The notes beneath the pieces are model-generated. The model had not been told where the DNA came from and made no database searches. It saw only the letters and a program-made list of their open reading frames with translations. Shown here one piece after another: positions 580 through 26,556 of a stretch of DNA of 41,681 bases. Source of the stretch: Archangium sp. (lineage in GTDB: Bacteria; Myxococcota; Myxococcia; Myxococcales; Myxococcaceae). The translations under genes were made by a program, and so were the position numbers. The stretch lies in NCBI GenBank assembly GCA_043737315.1, contig JAYTAT010000911.1, positions 1 through 41,681 on the forward strand, read 5' to 3'. Position 1 is the first letter of the stretch. The number at the start of each line of letters is the position of its first letter.

Positions 580-1614
580 CTACTGCACCGCCACGCCCTT
601 GCCCTTCTCGAGGTACCCGATGGCCCAGGCCTCGACACCCTTCTTCTCGAGAGCCTTCATCGCCTTGACGAGGTGCTTCTCAGGAATCGCAGCCAGCAAG
701 CCCCCATTGGTCTGAGCATCGGCCAGCACGAACTTGATCGCGTCCGGCAGCCCTTCGGGGAACGTCGTCCCCTTCTGAGCGTGCTCGAGGTTCGTCTTCG
801 TCCCACCGGGGATGACGCCCCTCTCAGCCAGCTGCGCAATCTGCGGCATCAACGGCACGCGCTCCAACTCGAGCACCGCCCTCACCTTCGCGCCGCGAGC
901 GACCTCGAGCACATGCCCCAGCAGGCCAAAGCCGGTCACATCAGTCAGCGCGTTCACCTTGAACTTCCCGCTCGCAAACACTTCACCGGCCGCCTTGTTG
1001 AGCGTGGCCATCTGCAGGGTGACGAACTTCACCAGCTCCTTCGAGGCCAGCTCGCGTTTGAGCGCCGTCGTCGCGATTCCCGTGCCGATGGGCTTGGTGA
1101 GCACCAGCACGTCTCCCGCCTTGCCGCCTGCGTTGGTCAGCACCTTCTTCGGGTGCACCGTGCCCGTCACCGCCATGCCGTACTTCGGCTCAGGCGACTG
1201 AATGGAGTGCCCACCCAGAATCGGAATACCGGCCTCTTTCGCCTTCGAAGCACCGCCCGCGAGGATCTCTTTCAAGATCGAGATCGGCAGCTCCTTGGGG
1301 AACGCCACCAGGTTGAGCGCGAAGATCGCCCTGGCCCCCATCGCCCAGATGTCGCTCATCGCGTTGGCTGCGGCGATCTGACCGTATGCAAACGGGTCAT
1401 CGACCACGGGCGGGAAGAAGTCGACGGTCTCCACCACCGCGAGGTCTTTGGTGAGCTGGTAGACGGCAGCGTCATCGCTGGTCTCGAAGCCCACCAAGGC
1501 GTTCTTCACCTTCACGTTGGAAATACCGGCCAGCAGCTCGCCCAGAAGATCAGGGCGAAGCTTCGCGGCGCAACCAGCACAATTCGAGAGCGAGGTCAGT
1601 CGGGGGGCGTTCAT
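580..1614 (-). CDS. selD: selenide, water dikinase (selenophosphate synthetase), Cys-type
   Basis: 344-aa ORF. The N-terminal loop LSNCAGCAAKLRP matches the SelD catalytic Cys/Lys loop, with Cys rather than Sec. PurM/AIR-synthase-like body (DDAAV, ILGGHS, TDVTGFG). The start overlaps the upstream stop by 4 nt. Confidence 0.88.
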   Translation of the reverse strand: MNAPRLTSLSNCAGCAAKLRPDLLGELLAGISNVKVKNALVGFETSDDAAVYQLTKDLAVVETVDFFPPVVDDPFAYGQIAAANAMSDIWAMGARAIFALNLVAFPKELPISILKEILAGGASKAKEAGIPILGGHSIQSPEPKYGMAVTGTVHPKKVLTNAGGKAGDVLVLTKPIGTGIATTALKRELASKELVKFVTLQMATLNKAAGEVFASGKFKVNALTDVTGFGLLGHVLEVARGAKVRAVLELERVPLMPQIAQLAERGVIPGGTKTNLEHAQKGTTFPEGLPDAIKFVLADAQTNGGLLAAIPEKHLVKAMKALEKKGVEAWAIGYLEKGKGVAVQ

Positions 1615-2579
1615 GCCCCGCGCAGATAACCCCGCTGGAGGAGCGCGGCTACCGTCGTGGCAATGGCCACGTCGTCCTGGCTGGCGTTGTCGAACACGCC
1701 CTGGAGCGAACCCCAGTTGATCACCAGCTGCAGCACGTCGAGCTCTTCGGGCGAAAGATCACGCAGCGCAGGCTGCAGGGGCACCGAGATGGTGAGCGTC
1801 TCATCCATCGGGGGCAACGAGCCCTGAATGCGGCGAAGCTCGTCGAGCTGGCGCAGCGCATCCATCAACAGGTGCTCGGTCGACTCGTCGAGCTCCGTCA
1901 TGAACTCCTGGTTGTCCGGCGGCCTCAGCTCGAACTCGCCGATTTCCCAGGTGATGATGCGGTTGAAGCTCTTCTGCGGCCCGAGGTCGTGATTGTCGTT
2001 GATGACCGCGTAGTAGACCTTGCCCTGGCGCAGGTAGATCTTGGCCTCGTGCTGGTTGTTCACCACCAGCACGCCGTTCTTCTTCGAGGTGTGGAAGAGC
2101 TGCAGCAGGTCGGGGAGCGGGACTTCTTCGATCTTCCCGGTCATCGCCGTCTTGGTCTGCCGCTGGCTCTGCACCACGGCGACCTGCTCGAGGTTCTGCT
2201 TCACCTGAGCGTCAGACAGCTCGATCGCGTTGGCGCCGGCCTTGACGAGCTTGAGGATCGACGTGCCGACCAGGATGCGATCGCCCTCTTTGAGGCGCCA
2301 GGTCTTCACCTTCTCGCCGTTGACGAAGGTGCCGTTGGTCGAGCCGAGATCCTCGATGGTGATCTTCCCGCCCGAGAGCGTGATCTTCGCGTGCTTGCGC
2401 GAGACCATGTCTTCCACGAGCACGATGTCGAGCTCGCTCGAGCGGCCGATGATCAGCTGCTTGTCGCCTTTGAGAGGGAATTCCCCGCCCTGGTACTTAC
2501 CGGAGATGAATTTGAGCGCATACACGTCAGACAAGATCGCGACTCCCGGAGGCGCCGAAGCGCGCTGGCCTTGCAGCAT
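1611..2579 (-). CDS. FHA domain protein with C-terminal DUF4388 (PATAN-like) domain
   Basis: FHA core IIGRSSELDIVLVEDMVSRKHAKI...GSTNGTFVNGEKV, then LPDLLQLFHTSKKNGVLVV...IYLRQGKVYYA...WEIGEFEL. ATG 2579 shares 1 nt with the upstream TGA (TGATG). GTG 2582 is an alternative start. Confidence 0.8.
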   Translation of the reverse strand: MLQGQRASAPPGVAILSDVYALKFISGKYQGGEFPLKGDKQLIIGRSSELDIVLVEDMVSRKHAKITLSGGKITIEDLGSTNGTFVNGEKVKTWRLKEGDRILVGTSILKLVKAGANAIELSDAQVKQNLEQVAVVQSQRQTKTAMTGKIEEVPLPDLLQLFHTSKKNGVLVVNNQHEAKIYLRQGKVYYAVINDNHDLGPQKSFNRIITWEIGEFELRPPDNQEFMTELDESTEHLLMDALRQLDELRRIQGSLPPMDETLTISVPLQPALRDLSPEELDVLQLVINWGSLQGVFDNASQDDVAIATTVAALLQRGYLRGA

Positions 2580-20941: not shown

Positions 20942-21841
20942 TCAGGTGAGCACGGGGAGCGCCACGGACCCCGCCTTGAGGACGTCGTTGAGCCGGCCCG
21001 ATCGGAAGGGCTCGAGATCCACGGCCACGAAGGTGAAGCCCTGCGCCTTGATGGCCGTGTTGACCGCCTCGCGCGTGCTGGGGTCGAGCATGCGCGAGAG
21101 CTCTTCCGCACCCAACTCGAGGCGCGCGACCTCGTGGTGGTACCGCACGCGGAAGTTCACGAAGCCCAGCGTACGCACGGCTTTTTCGGCCGCACCGACC
21201 TGCTTCAAACGCTCGACCGTCACCTGCGTGCCGTAAGGCAATCGCGACGCAAGGCAGGCCATCTGCGGCTTGTCCCACGTGGGAAGATCGAGGCGCTTCG
21301 ACCAGGCGCGCACCTCGGCTTTGGTGAGCTGCGCTTCAGCCAGGGGGGAGCGCACCGCGTGCTCGGCCGCTGCCTTGTGACCGGGGCGGTGATCCTTCTT
21401 GTCGTCGGCGTTGAAGCCATCGAGCACCACGGCGAGGCCCAGCTCTGCACGGTGTTTGCTGGTGATAGCGTAGAGCTCGGTCTTGCAAAAATAACAGCGG
21501 TTCGAAGGGTTCGCGGCGTAGCGGGGATCGTCGAGCTCCTTCGAGTCGACCAGCACGTGCCTCGCGCCGATCTTCGCCGCGAGCTCCTGCGCCTCTATCG
21601 CTTCGTCGGGCGCGACCGAGGCCGAGATCGCGGTCAGCGCGACCGCCCGTGCGCCGAGTTGTTCGACGGCCAGCTTGAGCACCAGCGTCGAGTCGACGCC
21701 TCCCGAAAAGGCGATCAAGGCCGAGCCGTGCGCACGCAGCGCTGCTCTGAGGCCCTCGACCCGGTCAGCAGACTGGGCGCACAGCGCATCAACCTGTGCG
21801 TCCGAGAGAACAGGCTGCTGAGGCATGGCTTGTGACGACAT
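20942..21841 (-). CDS. larE: PP-loop ATP pyrophosphatase, LarE-type sulfur transferase family
   Basis: SGGVDS PP-loop, NRCYFCKTELY (CxxC) and KPQMACLASRLPYG (the LarE-type Cys motif as I recall it). 299 aa. Confidence 0.65.
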   Translation of the reverse strand: MSSQAMPQQPVLSDAQVDALCAQSADRVEGLRAALRAHGSALIAFSGGVDSTLVLKLAVEQLGARAVALTAISASVAPDEAIEAQELAAKIGARHVLVDSKELDDPRYAANPSNRCYFCKTELYAITSKHRAELGLAVVLDGFNADDKKDHRPGHKAAAEHAVRSPLAEAQLTKAEVRAWSKRLDLPTWDKPQMACLASRLPYGTQVTVERLKQVGAAEKAVRTLGFVNFRVRYHHEVARLELGAEELSRMLDPSTREAVNTAIKAQGFTFVAVDLEPFRSGRLNDVLKAGSVALPVLT

Positions 21842-21918: not shown

Positions 21919-22608
21919 TCACTTCTTGCCCTTCTTCTTCGCAGGCTTGGCGGCCTTCGCAGGCTTTGGCGCCTTGACGGGAGCAGCCACTTTGGCGGGT
22001 TTACCCGGCTTGACCTTCTTGGGGTTCGGGTTCGCCTTCATCTTCGTGCCCGTGATGACCTTGAGCTCGTCGGCGGTCATGTACGAAAGATCGAGCAGCG
22101 ACTGGAACACCTTGAGGCCGCCCTCCTCGATGCTCTCGGTGTTGGTGTGCACGATGACTTCAGCCGAGCTGGGCGGCTGGTAAGGCTCGGTGATCCCGAC
22201 GAAGTTGGGGATCTCGCCGGCGAGCGCCTTCTTGTACTTGCCGGTGGTGTCGCGCTTGATGAGCTCGTCCGTGGGGCAGTCGACGTAGACCTCGATGTAG
22301 CGCTGAATGCGGCGGCGGTTGTCGTCGCGCGATTGCTTGTCGGGGCTCGCACAGGCGACCAGCGTGGCCACGCCGTTGCGCGTGAGGGCATCGGCGACGA
22401 AGCCCAGGCGGCGCGCGATGACCATGCGCTCTTCCTTGGTGTCTCCTTCGATTTCCTTCCAGAGATCGTCCTGAAGGTCGTCTTCATCGAGGATCTCGAC
22501 CTTCCGGCCGACCTGGCGCATGCGCGCTTCGATGTACTGGGCCAGCGTGCTCTTCCCCGCCCCCAACATGCCCGTCAGCCAGACCGTGAAGCCCGTCTCT
22601 TGCGCCAT
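21919..22608 (-). CDS. cysC: adenylyl-sulfate (APS) kinase family protein with Lys/Pro/Ala-rich C-terminal tail
   Basis: ATG 22608. P-loop WLTGMLGAGKSTLA, then ...RDTTGKYKKALAGEIPNFVGITEPYQPP. Tail KANPNPKKVKPGKPAKVAAPVKAPKPAKAAKPAKKKGKK. Some canonical APS-kinase positions look substituted. Confidence 0.65.
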   Translation of the reverse strand: MAQETGFTVWLTGMLGAGKSTLAQYIEARMRQVGRKVEILDEDDLQDDLWKEIEGDTKEERMVIARRLGFVADALTRNGVATLVACASPDKQSRDDNRRRIQRYIEVYVDCPTDELIKRDTTGKYKKALAGEIPNFVGITEPYQPPSSAEVIVHTNTESIEEGGLKVFQSLLDLSYMTADELKVITGTKMKANPNPKKVKPGKPAKVAAPVKAPKPAKAAKPAKKKGKK

Positions 22609-22741: not shown

Positions 22742-23266
22742 TTATTGCTGTTGATTTGTCCTGTGCGAGCACGCAGAAACAACGCCGGCTTCGAAGCTTT
22801 CACCCCGCCAATGCACCAGACCAAGGGGGTCGGACCACCCCAGAATCAGCCGTTGCGCGGTCAGGGCGACAAGGCTCCCGATGGGTCCTCCTTCGGGTTC
22901 AAAACCCAGCCCCCGCCGCACCGCTTCCCAGCAGGCGTCACAGCCTTCGGGGCTGCGAAAGGCCACGCCGGCCCCCACCACCACCTGGGTGCGGGCTGTC
23001 GAGGCGAGGCCCAACGGAAGGACATCGAGCACCGGTTCGAGGGCCGATTGATCCCACTGCGTGTGCGAGAGGAACCCGGTCAACTCGCAGTCTGATCTGC
23101 GTTCGATCGGAGTGCCGCCGGCCGAAAGCCAGGCCACTGCGTCGTCGATCGCCGCGCCGCTTCCCCACACCCGCACCGCAGAAACCAGCAGCTTCTCCTG
23201 CCCCTTGCCTCCCACCTCACGCAGCAGGATCTGCCGGCCGTACCGGAGAATCTGATCTTCGCGCAT
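22742..23266 (-). CDS. degenerate, shortened ThiF/MoeB-like (pseudo-E1) protein
   Basis: ATG 23266 shares 1 nt with the upstream TGA. MREDQILRYGRQILLREVGGKGQEKLL is followed by the degenerate loop VRVWGSGAAIDDAVAWLSAGG. There is no DxD...SNLxRQ motif. One CxxC (CDAC) is kept. 174 aa. Confidence 0.6.
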   Translation of the reverse strand: MREDQILRYGRQILLREVGGKGQEKLLVSAVRVWGSGAAIDDAVAWLSAGGTPIERRSDCELTGFLSHTQWDQSALEPVLDVLPLGLASTARTQVVVGAGVAFRSPEGCDACWEAVRRGLGFEPEGGPIGSLVALTAQRLILGWSDPLGLVHWRGESFEAGVVSACSHRTNQQQ

Positions 23267-23538
23267 CAACCACCTGCCATCGCCGCGACCAACACCACCA
23301 GCTCGGTCGCCGTCAGCGCGCGTGCGAGGCCTTCGTCACTGCGTACGTCGTCTTCGCCCACGAAGATGCCCACCGTGCGTTTGAGCTTTCCGCCGAAGGT
23401 GAAGAGCTGCGGCCGCAACTCAGGGTGCGCGCGGCACACCGACTCCAGCGCGTCGGCGACGGTCGCGCCTTCGACGGTGATCTTCGCGCGGCCGGCAGCG
23501 CGGGGACGAAGGGCCGCGGGGAGCTCGACGACAGGCAT
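23266..23538 (-). CDS. ThiS/MoaD-family ubiquitin-like sulfur carrier (C-terminal Gly-Gly)
   Basis: 90 aa ending ...ELVVLVAAMAGG-stop. The start shares 1 nt with the upstream TGA (TGATG). Confidence 0.75.
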   Translation of the reverse strand: MPVVELPAALRPRAAGRAKITVEGATVADALESVCRAHPELRPQLFTFGGKLKRTVGIFVGEDDVRSDEGLARALTATELVVLVAAMAGG

Positions 23539-23777
23539 CAGTGGTGCACCCGTAAGGTGAGCTTCGCGCTGCCGTCTTCCAACGGCTGAATCGAGAGCAC
23601 CTCGTGACCTTCTTCAAGAGCGCTGCGCGGTACGTTGGTCAGTGGCTCCTGGCCGCGCAAAATCACCTCGAGGGTGGCGCCGTCTTCGAGCGCTTCGACA
23701 GCGAGCTTCACGCGCACGTAGGTCATGGGGCAAACCTCGCGGGTGATGTCGATGGTGGTGAGCATCGGGGGCTTCAT
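23538..23777 (-). CDS. TusA/SirA-like sulfurtransferase
   Basis: MKPPMLTTIDITREVCPMTYVRVKLAVEALEDGATLEVILRG... carries the Cys-Pro motif at the TusA position. ATG 23777 shares 1 nt with the E1 TAA (TAATG). ATG 23798 and 23765 are alternative starts. Confidence 0.65.
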   Translation of the reverse strand: MKPPMLTTIDITREVCPMTYVRVKLAVEALEDGATLEVILRGQEPLTNVPRSALEEGHEVLSIQPLEDGSAKLTLRVHH

Positions 23778-24460
23778 TACCGGTTTCCAGGCCCGCATGC
23801 CGAGCAGTCCGCGCGGCGGCGCACCCGCACGCTCCGAAAGGTGAGGCTGCGGCCATCGATTACGTGAAGCAAAGCCATGCCCTCTTCCTCTGTGAAAGGG
23901 TCAGGGTGAGGGCCCACGACCCTCAACGCCAGACTCGCCTGCAGTCCCCCAATCAAGCCGGCCATCGAGCCGAGCACGCCGGCCTGGGCACACGTCGGCG
24001 CGTCATCAGGCGGTGTCTCGAACAGACAGCGCAGACACGGTCCCCCCGGTTCGATGCGCATGGCGAGGCCCTCGAAACGAAGCACGCCGCCGTAGATGAG
24101 TGGGATGCCGGTGCGCACCGAGGTGTCGGAGAGCAGGAACTTGGTCTCGACCCCATCGGTCGCGTCGATCACCAGATCGTGCGAGGTGAACAGCGTTTCG
24201 GCGTTCTGCGGGTCGAGTCGTTCCTGCCGGGCGGCGATCTTCAGCCCGGTGAAAGCGCGTTGCAACTTGGTGGCGGCGGAGCGCACCTTTGGCTGCCCCA
24301 CGTCGGCCGCGTGATGCCAGGGCTGGCGGTGGAGGTTGGTCAGCTCGACCACGTCGGGATCCATCAGAGTGAGCCGCGTCAGCCCGGCGCGCGCCAGCCC
24401 GAGGGAAGCCGGGCAGCCGAGCCCACCCACGCCGACGATCAGCACGTGCTTTGGAATCAC
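23777..24460 (-). CDS. ThiF/MoeB-type E1-like adenylyltransferase lacking the usual N-terminal RYxRQ helix
   Basis: GTG 24460 lies 8 nt after AAGGAG. IPKHVLIVGVGGLGCPASLGLARAG...MDPDVVELTNLHRQ...DATDG...CLRC...CSAC. The rest of the 697-aa track ORF is antisense to the histidine kinase gene. Confidence 0.8.
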   Translation of the reverse strand: MIPKHVLIVGVGGLGCPASLGLARAGLTRLTLMDPDVVELTNLHRQPWHHAADVGQPKVRSAATKLQRAFTGLKIAARQERLDPQNAETLFTSHDLVIDATDGVETKFLLSDTSVRTGIPLIYGGVLRFEGLAMRIEPGGPCLRCLFETPPDDAPTCAQAGVLGSMAGLIGGLQASLALRVVGPHPDPFTEEEGMALLHVIDGRSLTFRSVRVRRRADCSACGPGNR

Positions 24461-24601
24461 CGTCACAGCTCCTTGCCCAGTTCGGCCCCTACCCCGACCC
24501 CTGCGACCCCGCTTCGCAGGGCGGGGGGGATTCACGCCCGACAAGGGGATACACTCTTCAGCACTTTGCAGCACTCCGATGATCGTCGCGCTCGTGTTGC
24601 C

Positions 24602-25819
24602 GTGGTGCTCGAGAAGCGTGGGCTTTCGCGGCAGGTGTCGGCCGCCGACGCCGCGCAGTCGTGGGTTCAAGATCGTTTCAGCGCCCGGGCCCGCGCCCTC
24701 TTCTACGCGCGCATGATGTTCCTCTCGCTGGGCCTGGGCATCCTCGCGGTGCCCATCTGGCGCTACTACTTTCACTTCACCGCGCTCGCCGTCGCCGGCT
24801 ACGTGTTCATGCTGCTCTACAGCGTGGCGAACTACCTGGTGCTCGGTCACCAACGCGCGGGCCGCGTCGTCACGTACGTCACCTTGTGTCTGGATCTGGT
24901 GGTGATGGTGGTGGTGGTGGTCAAGCCACAAGAAGGCGGCGGCCTGGCCAACCCGCTGCTCGCCACGCAGCTGCTGTTCACGATGTTGTTCGCCCTGCTC
25001 TACCCCAAGCCGCTGGCGATCCTCCCGCCGCTGCTGGCGCTGCCGATCACCGCGCGCCTCGATCAGCTGCTCGACCGAAACCCCAGCGCCATCGAGGTGC
25101 TCACCCTCATCTGGTACCTCGGCCTCAACTTCATCGTCATCTACGTGCTGGTCTACCTGAACGAGCGCGAGGTGACGGCGCACCGCGAGGTTGTCGAGCT
25201 GCAGGGCGATCTCAAGGAGCTCGCCGTGGTCGAAGAACGCAATCGCCTGGCCCGCGAGATCCACGACGGCCTGGGCGCGAGCCTCTCTTCGCTCATCATC
25301 CAGTCCGAGTACGTCGCGCGGCTGACCAAGGACGAAGCGGTGAAGAAAGAGGTCGCCGACCTCAAGCAATCGGCTGAAGAGGCGATCGAAGAGCTGCGCC
25401 GCAGCCTGCAGATGATGCGCGAAGACTTCGATCTCGCCAACGGCGTCGAGGACTACGTGAAGACCTTCGGCGATCGCACCCAGCTGCCGGTGAACTTTCA
25501 GAAGAGCGGCACCCTGCTCGGCCGCCTCGCCCCCGAGACCTCGTTGGCGTTGTTCCGGGTGCTGCAGGAGCTGCTCTCGAACGCCGCCAAACACGCGGCG
25601 GCCGCGCGGGTCGACGTGAAGCTGCACTTCGGGCCTGAGTCGGTGCAGCTCGGCGTCAAAGACGACGGCAAGGGCTTCGACCCCGCCGCGCCCCGCCCCG
25701 GGCACTACGGCCTCATCAACCTGCGCGAGCGTGCGATGAAGGCCGGTGGCGACGTCACCATCGACGCGAAGGTCGGCGCAGGCGTGCACATCACCTTCAC
25801 TGTTCCAGTTCATCCCTGA
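24602..25819 (+). CDS. membrane sensor histidine kinase, NarL-partner (HisKA_3) type; start uncertain
   Basis: Polytopic N-terminal half. H-box EERNRLAREIHDGLGASLS. HATPase region LQELLSNAAKHAAA...DDGKGFD...GHYGLINLRERA. In-frame starts are GTG 24602/24605/24635 and ATG 24713. Confidence 0.8.
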   Translation: MVLEKRGLSRQVSAADAAQSWVQDRFSARARALFYARMMFLSLGLGILAVPIWRYYFHFTALAVAGYVFMLLYSVANYLVLGHQRAGRVVTYVTLCLDLVVMVVVVVKPQEGGGLANPLLATQLLFTMLFALLYPKPLAILPPLLALPITARLDQLLDRNPSAIEVLTLIWYLGLNFIVIYVLVYLNEREVTAHREVVELQGDLKELAVVEERNRLAREIHDGLGASLSSLIIQSEYVARLTKDEAVKKEVADLKQSAEEAIEELRRSLQMMREDFDLANGVEDYVKTFGDRTQLPVNFQKSGTLLGRLAPETSLALFRVLQELLSNAAKHAAAARVDVKLHFGPESVQLGVKDDGKGFDPAAPRPGHYGLINLRERAMKAGGDVTIDAKVGAGVHITFTVPVHP

Positions 25820-25836
25820 TTTGACGAGGAGTCGGC

Positions 25837-26556
25837 GTGGAAACCCCTGATGCACTGACGAACCCAACACCCGTGACGCCCATCCGTGTGTTCGTGGTGG
25901 AGGATCAGACGAAGATCCTCAAGAACCAGCTCAAGCTGCTCGAGGGTCACCCCGAGTTGGCCATCATCGGCACCGCGCTCTCGGGAGAAACCGGGCTCGA
26001 AGAGGTGCGAAGGCTCAAGCCCGACGTGCTGTTGCTCGACCTCGGCCTGCCCCGCATGAGCGGCATCGACGTCACCCGGGTGGTGAAAGCCGAGATGCCT
26101 TCGATCGAGATCCTCATCTTCACCATCTTCGACGAAGAGGACAAAGTGCTCGAAGCCGTGAAGGCCGGCGCTTCGGGGTACCTGCTCAAGGGCACGCCCG
26201 CCGACAAGATGGTCGAGGCGATCAAAGAGGTGCACGCCGGCGGCACGGTGATTCAGCCCAACCTGGCCAGGCGGCTGCTCAAACACTTCCGCGTCGGAGA
26301 GCCACCGCCCGCTGCTGCGCCCGGCCCCGCCCACACGCAGCAGCCCGAGCCCGAAGGCAAGAAGCTGTCGGCAAGAGAGACGGAGATTCTTCAGCTGATC
26401 GCCAAGGGCGTCTCGAACAGCGAGGCGGCCACCATGCTCACGCTCTCGAAGGCGACCATCCGCACGCACCTCGAGCACATCTACCGCAAGCTCGAGGTCA
26501 CCAACCGGGTCGAGGCCGTCACCGAAGGCCTGCGCAAGGGCCTCATTCAGATGTAA
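25837..26556 (+). CDS. response regulator, NarL/LuxR family (REC + HTH)
   Basis: GTG 25837 lies 5 nt after GAGGAG. Receiver VFVVEDQ...DVLLLDLGLPRMSG. Pro/Ala linker. LuxR HTH LSARETEILQLIAKGVSNSEAATMLTLSKATIRTHLEHIYRKL. Confidence 0.9.
   Translation: METPDALTNPTPVTPIRVFVVEDQTKILKNQLKLLEGHPELAIIGTALSGETGLEEVRRLKPDVLLLDLGLPRMSGIDVTRVVKAEMPSIEILIFTIFDEEDKVLEAVKAGASGYLLKGTPADKMVEAIKEVHAGGTVIQPNLARRLLKHFRVGEPPPAAAPGPAHTQQPEPEGKKLSARETEILQLIAKGVSNSEAATMLTLSKATIRTHLEHIYRKLEVTNRVEAVTEGLRKGLIQM

Follow-up and report, generated by a model that had tools for sequence, protein, structure and literature searches.

A candidate two-subunit E1-like adenylyltransferase in a sulfur-carrier gene cassette of Archangium sp.

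Results

The window analysed in this study, a 41,681-nucleotide stretch of DNA from Archangium sp. (contig JAYTAT010000911.1 of assembly GCA_043737315.1), carries four genes in series on its minus strand (Table 1). They encode a ThiF/MoeB-type adenylyltransferase of 227 aa (E1), a TusA-like protein of 79 aa, a β-grasp protein of 90 aa (Ubl), and a degenerate E1 paralogue of 174 aa (mini-E1). As read directly from the sequence, each gene overlaps the next by one nucleotide, and the layout described in the initial annotation of this DNA was recovered in full, base for base. These overlaps suggest that translation of the cassette genes is coupled. Alternative upstream starts would give longer ORFs for TusA (86 aa) and the mini-E1 (175 aa, from a TTG), and comparison with orthologues favours the overlapping ATGs as the probable starts. 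The frame of the E1 likewise extends upstream, to 25870, as a spurious high-GC ORF that is antisense to a histidine-kinase gene. The order truncated E1, TusA, Ubl (where present) and mini-E1 was found in about 70 Myxococcota genomes; since these are for the most part related genomes that share their synteny, they do not count as independent events. This recurrence, together with the purifying selection that dN/dS reveals on all four genes, makes the cassette more than a chance arrangement.

Table 1. Positions of the cassette genes, their junctions, and the downstream neighbours in the window
Feature	Position	Strand	Basis or remark
LarE-like PP-loop ATP-dependent sulfurtransferase (SGGVDS; CYFC...C)	20942..21841	-	TIGR00268 1.9e-92, above cut-off
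Adenylyl-sulfate (APS) kinase with Lys/Ala/Pro-rich C-terminal tail	21919..22608	-	PF01583 3.6e-39; TIGR00455 above cut-off
Mini-E1, degenerate shortened E1-fold paralogue, 174 aa	22742..23266	-	Alignment, AF2/Foldseek, dN/dS
Junction Ubl / mini-E1, ggtTGATGcgc	23268-23264	-	One nucleotide common to both genes
Ubl, ThiS/CysO/SAMP-like β-grasp sulfur carrier, 90 aa	23266..23538	-	PF02597 24.9 bits; SAMP1 1.1e-10
Junction TusA / Ubl, cacTGATGcct	23540-23536	-	One nucleotide common to both genes
TusA-like sulfurtransferase, 79 aa	23538..23777	-	PF01206 9.3e-17; start overlaps E1 stop by 1 nt
Junction E1 stop / TusA start, cggTAATGaag	23779-23775	-	One nucleotide common to both genes
Candidate catalytic E1, ThiF/MoeB adenylyltransferase, 227 aa	23777..24460	-	Pfam ThiF 6.5e-60; MoeB 1jw9 3.6e-40
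Shine-Dalgarno-like AAGGAG	24469..24474	-	8-nt spacer, then E1 GTG at 24460; read from sequence

The 227-aa protein belongs to the ThiF/MoeB family. It scores 202.7 bits against Pfam ThiF (PF00899, cut-off 28.1), and its match covers only positions 22-237 of the 238 in the profile; in MoeB (1jw9) it aligns with residues 33-248 of 249. The counterpart of MoeB residues 1-32, which include Arg14, is missing. Translated from the GTG, its N-terminus reads VIPKHVLIVGVGGLG and begins at Rossmann strand β1. This agrees with the initial annotation, which placed the start 8 nt past the AAGGAG box and noted the lack of the RYxRQ helix; equally, the 340 nt before the start (24461-24800) contain no R[YF]xRQ motif in any frame, and the in-frame sequence there had been described as not E1-like. 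The complete catalytic set used in MoeB numbering, GxGGxG, DxD, NLxRQ (Arg73), Lys86 and Asp130, is present, as GVGGLG, MDPD, NLHRQ, GQPKV and DATD in the MoeB alignment. Two CxxC motifs (CLRC and CSAC) and the crossover-loop cysteine (PTCAQAG) align with their counterparts in MoeB and ThiF and are invariant in the alignment of truncated E1s (A4). The protein is collinear with MoeB and has no insertions, and both a catalytic-cysteine domain and a ubiquitin-fold domain are absent.

A wrongly assigned start, a frameshift or a misassembly can mimic such a truncation, and the frame before the proposed E1 start does stay open, for 470 codons. However, nothing E1-like is read in any frame of this stretch, which lies antisense to a HisKA_3 histidine-kinase gene, and the GTG is preceded by a Shine-Dalgarno box. 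The orthologues refute an artefact, to which we give practically no credence: the same truncation recurs in about 71 independent assemblies, complete genomes included, and none of these evaluable cassettes encodes RYxRQ, in whichever frame, over the 400 nt that precede the E1. Whether orthologous E1s possess a helix of their own is thus answered in the negative for all of these cassettes. Among the nearest E1 homologues, 103 of 120 are truncated like the E1 in the window.

The second and third genes encode proteins of recognizable sulfur-transfer families, as had been proposed. The 79-aa protein reaches 61.1 bits against PF01206 (cut-off 28.6) and contains the active-site Cys-Pro motif in EVCPMTYV. 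In the Myxococcota cassettes, TusA directly follows the truncated E1, and we propose it as the putative persulfide donor. The 90-aa protein exceeds the cut-off of the ThiS family (22.5 bits), scores 42 bits against NCBIfam SAMP1 (under the equivalog cut-off of 60), and ends in AAMAGG-stop. As its C-terminus is already GG-stop, trimming is not needed. The carrier gene is present in many related cassettes and missing from many others. In three related loci (L089-L091), small divergent ORFs that precede the E1 were considered as a relocated carrier and rejected, as they are lipoprotein-like and not β-grasp.

The helix that the E1 lacks is found at the start of the 174-aa protein. Its N-terminal helix reads MREDQILRYGRQILLREVGGKGQEKLL, in which R11 aligns with ThiF Arg11 and MoeB Arg14, and the sole strong sequence match of the mini-E1 is to precisely the E1 N-terminus that is missing from the 227-aa protein. 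Matches to ThiF/MoeB models are confined to the first ~30-55 positions. The score against Pfam ThiF is 12.9 bits (cut-off 28.1; positions 1-30 only), and NCBIfam models give at best 29 bits where the cut-off is 266, with MoeB PRK05690 at 5.8e-7; no curated family threshold in Pfam or NCBIfam was reached, and the protein has no Pfam family of its own. In an alignment of 39 mini-E1 sequences and in the profile alignment to ThiF, the GxGGxG motif (which reads VWGSGAA), DxD, NLxRQ, and the Lys and Asp motifs are all lacking. The core is shorter by about 70 residues, and one CxxC (CDAC) and the C-terminal Cys are kept, so that the helix, dead glycine loop, deletion and single surviving CxxC attributed to this protein at the outset were all seen. 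The profile of the alignment matches ThiF residues 3-103 and the CxxC region; the CxxC...C and the C-terminal helix/strand region of E1 are retained.

Conservation within the mini-E1 is uneven. The residues E3, Q5, R8, R11, Q12, I13, L14, L15, G19, G20, G22 and Q23, as well as C109, C112 and C166, are invariant in the 39-sequence alignment (R8, R11 and Q12 in 39/39), and the invariant residues are concentrated in the N-terminal helix that includes R11. By its predicted structure, the mini-E1 is a protein of the ThiF-type E1 fold, which settles in favour of the initial annotation whether E1-fold similarity exists. The AF2 model has a pLDDT of 85.9 and a pTM of 0.81, and in Foldseek searches of the PDB it matches ThiF 1zud (E=2e-5, probability 1.0) and MoeB 1jw9 (8.8e-4, query-normalised TM 0.59); the top matches (ThiF, MoeB, UBA5, Uba4 and MccB) are all E1-like.

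A degenerate, shortened protein that evolves faster than its neighbours and belongs to no Pfam family may appear to be a functionless, decaying pseudogene of a duplicated thiF or moeB. However, dN/dS values of 0.22-0.32 indicate a real gene, and 23 columns are invariant over the 39 sequences at identities down to 34%. Together with the confident AF2 fold, the 85 cluster representatives recovered by the mini-E1 profile at E<1e-30, and the conservation of the protein across Myxococcaceae and Archangiaceae, including cultured Myxococcus, Corallococcus and Archangium species, these observations effectively refute decay, which we consider highly improbable.

The truncated E1 and the mini-E1 co-occur strictly, as the initial annotation had required of a functional pair. 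In an independent metagenome sample, a degenerate helix-bearing partner is encoded downstream of 12/12 truncated E1s and of 0/17 full-length E1s (Fisher p=1.9e-8). Three other truncated-E1 lineages with differing operon layouts each have a degenerate partner, and the same gene order occurs in six further metagenomic contexts. In all, roughly 150 loci were assembled for these comparisons. Split-E1 variants are also found in cysteine/homocysteine thiocarboxylate operons and in a second phylum, in Candidatus Binataceae. The partners from other operon types match the Myxococcota mini-E1 profile over their N-terminal 55-85 residues only, and the N-termini of canonical E1s score similarly. A single family for all partner proteins is therefore unsupported, since the Myxococcota profile recognizes the others only through the N-terminal helix region. 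For the same reason, the 613 matches of this profile at E<1e-10 are likely inflated by canonical E1 N-termini, and the count of 85 is safer.

Gene fusions add Rosetta-stone support for the links between E1 and mini-E1 and between E1 and TusA. The E1 and the mini-E1 are fused in a single reading frame in two assemblies (L086; P0217), and the E1 is fused to TusA in one locus (L082). The mini-E1 part of an E1::mini-E1 fusion comprises little beyond the helix and the first β-α-β unit. In an AF2 model of the P0217 fusion made from an E1-only alignment, the mini-E1 part has a pLDDT of only 31-48; in composite alignments of the same protein, MAFFT sets RYGRQILL onto the E1-internal NLHRQIL motif. Fusions of the mini-E1 to a JAB peptidase domain occur in several lineages (including L138).

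Downstream of the mini-E1, after a 133-nt gap, lies a gene for an APS kinase, which is probably part of the cassette operon, followed by a gene for a LarE-like PP-loop enzyme; synteny shows that both neighbours are kept in related loci. Fuller related operons also contain sulfate-activation genes and encode CysM/MetM-like enzymes that depend on PLP as well as a JAB peptidase, and a PALP sulfhydrylase and a JAB/Mec peptidase are present in five of the related loci (L090, L093, L096, L097 and L105). In profile searches, the cassette in the window has neither a PLP sulfhydrylase (PALP) nor a JAB/Mec peptidase. From the gene content of these fuller relatives, the system derives from protein-thiocarboxylate-dependent cysteine/homocysteine synthesis, and the cassette in the window is a reduced derivative of such an operon from which the PLP enzymes and the JAB peptidase are gone. 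Within the locus, the LarE-like enzyme is, tentatively, the likeliest consumer of the activated sulfur.

An anti-phage E1-E2 system of the CBASS Cap2 or Bil type was also considered and rejected. The PADLOC matches of the E1 extend over just the Rossmann part of the E1-E2 models, at 67 bits or less versus 196 for MoeB, and the other three cassette proteins gave no match. Profile and PADLOC searches found no E2-like protein in either the cassette or the related loci.

Discussion

We regard it as fairly probable that this cassette encodes a two-subunit E1-like adenylyltransferase, in which the 227-aa protein would be the sole catalytic subunit and the 174-aa protein its inactive paralogue, and which together with TusA would thiocarboxylate the carrier. 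The mini-E1 would stand where the homodimers of MoeB and ThiF have their second protomer, and the ATP site of the catalytic subunit would receive Arg11, the equivalent of MoeB Arg14 and ThiF Arg11, from the helix of the mini-E1. The catalytic subunit would have shed a helix that could serve only the dead site of its partner, and the mini-E1 a nucleotide-binding core that serves nothing. The only sensible reading of this reciprocal degeneration is that each protein pairs with the other and not with itself. The heteromer would then adenylate the ThiS/CysO-like carrier encoded next to it at the C-terminal Gly-Gly, and TusA would substitute for the rhodanese domain of MoeZ/Uba4 by passing persulfide sulfur on to form the carrier thiocarboxylate. 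We infer the physical heterodimer, the arginine supplied in trans, the role of TusA as donor, and the identity of the final acceptor.

The existence of a trans arginine finger, noted in the initial annotation for known structures, is confirmed by the literature, as MoeB Arg14 and ThiF Arg11 each belong to the adjoining subunit (PMC13139853). However, the same paper reports that MoeB and ThiF do not depend on this arginine for catalysis and that TcdA lacks it, which makes the argument that the heteromer is obligate because of the arginine finger the weakest link of the proposal. The truncated E1 might consequently work alone, as a self-sufficient homodimer without an arginine finger, and the mini-E1 might be an accessory protein, either a scaffold for the carrier, TusA or JAB peptidase built from the C-terminal half and zinc site of an E1, or a protein that regulates or inhibits its E1 neighbour. 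The mini-E1::JAB fusions fit such a docking role, as does the retention of the CxxC...C and C-terminal region. We consider this alternative possible but rather unlikely, as it leaves unexplained why, in every lineage examined, the E1 has lost and the partner has kept just this helix, and why the invariant part of the partner is the helix; moreover, the E1::mini-E1 fusion keeps little else than this helix and the β-α-β unit that follows. Within the preferred two-subunit reading, the mini-E1 may matter mainly as the structural half of the dimer, and the stoichiometry of E1 to mini-E1 could be other than 1:1.

It is instructive to compare the cassette with known systems. As in MoeB-MoaD and ThiF-ThiS of E. 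coli, the larger subunit has the same fold and catalytic motifs, the two CxxC zinc motifs are present, and the β-grasp carrier ends in GG; the arginine finger that reaches across the MoeB and ThiF dimers is proposed here too. In contrast to these symmetric homodimers with two active sites, the active site and the helix are here on separate polypeptides, and the comparative data speak for a heteromer. Protein-thiocarboxylate synthesis of cysteine or homocysteine is known from MoeZ/MoeZR-CysO-CysM-Mec in Mycobacterium and MetO-MetM-Mec-MoeZ in Streptomyces. Similarly, related loci join a split E1 to a ThiS-like carrier ending in GG plus one residue, and carry CysM-like and ThrC/MetM-like PLP enzymes, a Mec-like JAB peptidase and sulfate-activation genes. 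However, the E1 of MoeZ forms one chain with a rhodanese domain, whereas the present system has a split E1 and, in place of the rhodanese, a TusA that is either separate or fused; the cassette in the window also differs in being without the PLP enzymes and the JAB peptidase.

In the eukaryotic NAE1-UBA3 and SAE1-UBA2 and the single-chain UBA1, an active domain and an inactive paralogous domain support one active site. Both types of adenylation domain are encoded here as well, on separate and strictly co-occurring genes whose products would form a comparable pair. In contrast to the eukaryotic enzymes, the system has no catalytic-cysteine insertion, ubiquitin-fold domain, E2 or E3, it would presumably yield a thiocarboxylate instead of a thioester, and the inactive subunit is much smaller. 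Like the eukaryotic E1s and bacterial BilD, the yeast tRNA ct6A dehydratase Tcd1-Tcd2 of the ThiF family is a precedent for arginine donation by an inactive paralogue. In this enzyme, inactive Tcd1 gives Arg59 to its active partner and receives none in return, although Arg59 was found to be non-essential (PMC13139853). The same asymmetry is proposed for E1 and mini-E1, but Tcd1-Tcd2 is eukaryotic, has two full-length subunits, and acts on tRNA and not on a β-grasp carrier.

Bacterial sulfur-carrier E1s such as MoeB, ThiF and MoeZ are described in textbooks and recent reviews as symmetric homodimers, and the pairing of an active with an inactive domain is treated as a feature of eukaryotes or, since 2023, of the Bil anti-phage E1. 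A split sulfur-carrier E1 had no earlier description in the literature searched, which included Iyer et al. 2006 and had the E1-like survey of Burroughs et al. 2009 outside its scope. The statement in the initial annotation that no prokaryotic split E1 has been described holds to that extent, but BilD, the E1 of the Bil anti-phage system, already combines inactive and active adenylation domains as a pseudo-dimer within one chain (PMC10557695). BilD, however, contains a CYS domain and works with an E2 in protein conjugation, whereas the present system consists of two genes without an E2, resides in sulfur-metabolism operons, and has only generic E1 similarity in PADLOC.

Taking all lineages together, we lean, by a modest degree, towards an obligate heteromeric E1 that is widespread in sulfur-carrier pathways of Myxococcota and Binatota, and probably of other phyla. 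Its catalytic and IAD-like subunits would be encoded by separate but coupled genes and would have degenerated reciprocally, the asymmetry would have arisen perhaps several times in bacterial sulfur metabolism, and the small subunit would also be a docking platform for TusA and JAB. All stages of this asymmetry appear to exist in nature, namely a full-length dead paralogue, forms of 200-230 aa, the 174-aa form, and a fused form of ~95 aa. If true, an asymmetry deemed a hallmark of eukaryotic or Bil-type E1s arose in ordinary bacterial sulfur metabolism. A two-gene E1 would be a simple and tractable model for the evolution of E1 asymmetry, in which the contributions of the trans arginine and of the second protomer could be tested directly. 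Hundreds of genes now called 'hypothetical' or misnamed 'adenylyltransferase', including those of cultured Myxococcus, Corallococcus and Archangium species, would receive a correct annotation, and the finding also matters for reconstructing cysteine and methionine biosynthesis via protein thiocarboxylates in Myxococcota and Binatota.

Results

The four minus-strand genes of the cassette are arranged as the initial annotation had described, and the E1 start, its AAGGAG box and the three one-nucleotide overlaps can all be read in the sequence. The 227-aa E1 matches Pfam ThiF (6.5e-60) over profile positions 22-237 only and aligns with residues 33-248 of the 249-residue E. coli MoeB. In the latter alignment it possesses the glycine loop, DPD, NLHRQ (Arg73), GQPKV (Lys86) and DATD (Asp130), and also retains both CxxC motifs and the Cys of the crossover loop. 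The catalytic core is therefore complete but has no counterpart of MoeB residues 1-32, and the initial proposal that it lacks the N-terminal RYxRQ helix, which bears the arginine finger, was borne out by the points at which both matches begin. TusA (family match 9e-17) and the carrier (ThiS above threshold, SAMP1 1e-10, C-terminus GG-stop) are ordinary family members, consistent with their first identification as a TusA-like protein and a GG-ended Ubl.

The E1 reading frame is open further upstream, antisense to a HisKA_3 histidine-kinase gene, and no E1-like translation was found upstream of the GTG in any frame. This 697-aa frame is a shadow ORF of the kind typical for high-GC DNA, and gene callers could be misled by it. 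Both the kinase and a GerE-type response regulator are conserved divergent neighbours and possible regulators of the cassette. When orthologous E1s were searched for a helix of their own, none of the ~71 evaluable E1s had R[YFHW]xRQ within 400 nt upstream in any frame; two ordinary MoeB genes caught by the same pattern search do carry it. In the E1s of Myxococcus, Corallococcus and Pyxidicoccus (loci L024, L026-L029, L033, L035, L036, L048, L052-L071), the helix is replaced by a conserved His-rich N-terminal extension, MHGHxTDHHPRIPHASRxER, which may serve to bind metal or a partner.

Features of the window and of related loci (L-numbers)
Feature	Coordinates	Strand	Remarks
AIR-synthase-family protein	580-1614	-	begins MNAPRLTSLSNCAGCAAKL; ~20 kb from sulfur cassette
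Secreted/lipoprotein-like protein, 854/875 aa	18287-20914	-	no Pfam matches
LarE-like PP-loop sulfurtransferase	20942-21841	-	TIGR00268 1.9e-92; CYFC…C cysteine set
APS kinase	21919-22608	-	Lys/Ala/Pro-rich, histone-H1-like C-terminal tail, …KANPNPKKVKPGKPAKVAAPVKAPKPAKAAKPAKKKGKK
Mini-E1, 174 aa	22742-23266	-	
Carrier/mini-E1 junction	23268-23264	-	TGATG; stop and next start share one nucleotide
Carrier	23266-23538	-	
TusA/carrier junction	23540-23536	-	TGATG; stop and next start share one nucleotide
TusA	23538-23777	-	
E1/TusA junction	23779-23775	-	TAATG; stop and next start share one nucleotide
E1, 227 aa	23777-24460	-	GTG start 24460; AAGGAG at 24474-24469, spacer 8 nt
697-aa open frame	23777-25870	-	
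HisKA_3 histidine kinase	24659-25819	+	
GerE-type response regulator	25837-26556		
Cys-rich secreted/lipoprotein-like protein, 488 aa	26615-28081	-	no Pfam matches
NIL-domain gene	L093:9266-9526		
NIL-domain gene	L097:9259-9561		
NIL-domain gene	L080 about 1420-1677		
Degenerate ThiF-like protein	L079:221-997		
TusA of L079	1004-1234		

The mini-E1 matches E1 models over their first 30-55 positions only, with scores under every curated cut-off. A word-indexed search gave ~57 homologues, 145-212 aa long, in which Pfam recognises no domain; few sources name them, as 'hypothetical protein'. Across 39 aligned sequences, with identity down to 34%, E3, Q5, R8, R11, Q12, I13, L14, L15, G19, G20, G22, Q23, L26 and L27 are invariant, together with C109, C112, C166 and a few helix residues. 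In the profile of this alignment, R11 aligns to the second Arg of ThiF MRYSRQILL, and the CxxC-helix region to that of ThiF. The most constrained part of the mini-E1 is the helix absent from the neighbouring E1. The AlphaFold2 model from the same alignment (pLDDT 85.9, pTM 0.81; only 62-68 pLDDT for the first 20 residues) gave exclusively E1-fold top matches in Foldseek against the PDB, led by ThiF 1zud (E=2e-5, probability 1.0) and followed by MoeB, PaaA, UBA5, MccB and Uba4, so that the predicted structure agrees with the fold first suggested. Between the window and four relatives, dN/dS is 0.22-0.32 for the mini-E1 and 0.15-0.22 for the E1. Taken together, these results indicate that the mini-E1 is a functional, shortened, catalytically dead E1 paralogue.

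When each species was represented by a single genome, a scan found mini-E1 in Myxococcus, Corallococcus, Pyxidicoccus, Archangium, Vitiosangium, Hyalangium, Citreicoccus and many Myxococcota MAGs. The order in ~70 loci is truncated E1-TusA-[Ubl]-mini-E1-(JAB)-APS kinase-LarE-like, and metagenomic contigs follow the order of the Myxococcota cassettes. Many cassettes keep E1, TusA and mini-E1 and have no Ubl gene between the last two (L003, L004, L006, L015, L022, L030-L032, L034, L041-L047, L089, L091); a JAB peptidase is nevertheless retained in some of these, as a mini-E1 fusion in L089 and as a protein of its own in L091. Two loci with ~70% GC and Myxococcota-like genes, L085 and L087, lie in MAGs that carry the names Klebsiella pneumoniae and Enterobacteriaceae, probably owing to mis-binning.

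The 120 homologues nearest to the E1 domain include 103 without the helix. Three truncated-E1 lineages with differing operon layouts each encode a 177-210-aa partner with RYSRQI..GxxGQ, a dead glycine loop, CxxC motifs kept and catalytic motifs absent. One operon (L093, L097) reads truncated E1-ThrC/MetM-like-ThiS(AGG+1)-CysM-like-NIL-partner, and the L097-type partner is from Candidatus Binataceae, of a phylum other than Myxococcota. In this ThrC-like/CysM-like type, an 86-100-aa NIL-domain protein is always encoded directly upstream of the partner. Another operon (L096), PALP-truncated E1-TusA-ThiS-partner-PALP-JAB-APS kinase-LarE, represents the window cassette in fuller form and shares its chromosomal neighbourhood. 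The expected co-occurrence of truncated E1 and helix partner was also seen in an independent metagenome scan with an E1 motif (80 loci, those with enough flank scored): a degenerate helix-bearing ORF lies downstream on the same strand at 12/12 truncated E1s vs 0/17 full-length ones (Fisher p=1.9e-8), in loci that are not phylogenetically independent but represent several types of operon, with identities of 36-60% and GC contents of 58-73%.

Fusions were found of truncated E1 with a mini-E1 remnant at its C-terminus, both in one reading frame, ...GGLTADEIERYGRQILLREVGGAGQ... (one lineage, two assemblies: L086 and protein P0217), of E1 with TusA (L082), and of mini-E1 with a Prok-JAB peptidase (five cluster representatives and L138). 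Degeneration is seen at several stages: a 258-aa full-length, dead ThiF-like protein in Magnetococcales (L079), proteins of 200-233 aa at several loci in which traces like DDPDEV or VGRP..NPD persist, the 174-aa protein of this window, and the ~95-aa fused remnant of L086/P0217. The L079 protein, with VDDGVVDGARLALEPL replacing DxDxVxxSNLxRQ and TusA directly after it on a 4.7-kb contig that holds no active E1, may represent the inactive subunit at an early stage. As the Myxococcota mini-E1 profile recognises other partner types through the N-terminal region only, it is not established that all partners share one origin. MAFFT superposed the N-terminal RYxRQILL on the internal ATP-site NLxRQIL of E1 (alignments A2, A3), a similarity that can mislead automated alignment when E1 proteins are truncated or partial.

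Discussion

MoeB Arg14 and ThiF Arg11 are arginine fingers donated by the neighbouring subunit (PMC13139853), in line with the initial annotation. In the yeast Tcd1-Tcd2 pair, the inactive paralogue donates the arginine and gets none back (PMC13139853). Reciprocal degeneration could have shaped the bacterial pair: once one site died, the helix serving only that site would be dispensable, and the dead subunit would lose its nucleotide-binding core but retain the helix and the C-terminal half through which dimers form. The enzyme predicted from this is a pseudo-symmetric 1:1 heteromer that has a single active site. The main rival is a self-sufficient E1 with the mini-E1 as scaffold or regulator; the arginine finger has been stressed as non-essential in MoeB/ThiF (PMC13139853), which is in keeping with this rival, but such a reading leaves the strict E1/mini-E1 complementarity unexplained. 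In the proposed split enzyme, judging from family knowledge and the E1::TusA fusion, TusA would replace the rhodanese domain of MoeZ/Uba4 as persulfide donor and the carrier would be converted to a thiocarboxylate.

The context in relatives (CysM/MetM-like enzymes, JAB, ATP sulfurylase, APS kinase, sulfate permease) suggests a route of Cys/homocysteine synthesis that depends on protein thiocarboxylates. Both the PLP enzymes and the JAB peptidase have been lost from the window lineage, whose carrier is already GG-ended; the LarE-like enzyme, constantly linked to the cassette, is the local candidate for sulfur acceptor. As no larB or larC was seen near it, its target is probably other than the nickel-pincer cofactor. 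The APS kinase tail, unusual for CysC, is kept in all related cassettes. The two large secreted or lipoprotein-like proteins lie on either side of the region, and the ~850-aa one, encoded downstream of the LarE-like enzyme, belongs to the block whose synteny is conserved. The AIR-synthase-family protein looks like a SelD-type selenophosphate synthetase.

Bacterial E1-like proteins have been described as homodimers except for BilD, which joins an active adenylation domain to an inactive one within one chain (PMC10557695; PMC12355090). The pairing of active and inactive E1s is known from eukaryotic E1s, Tcd1-Tcd2 and BilD. As the initial annotation supposed, no split sulfur-carrier E1 is described in the full-text literature searched or the 2006 Aravind-group survey, a search that did not cover the 2009 E1-superfamily survey. 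A two-gene sulfur-carrier E1 would be notable for E1 evolution and is directly testable.
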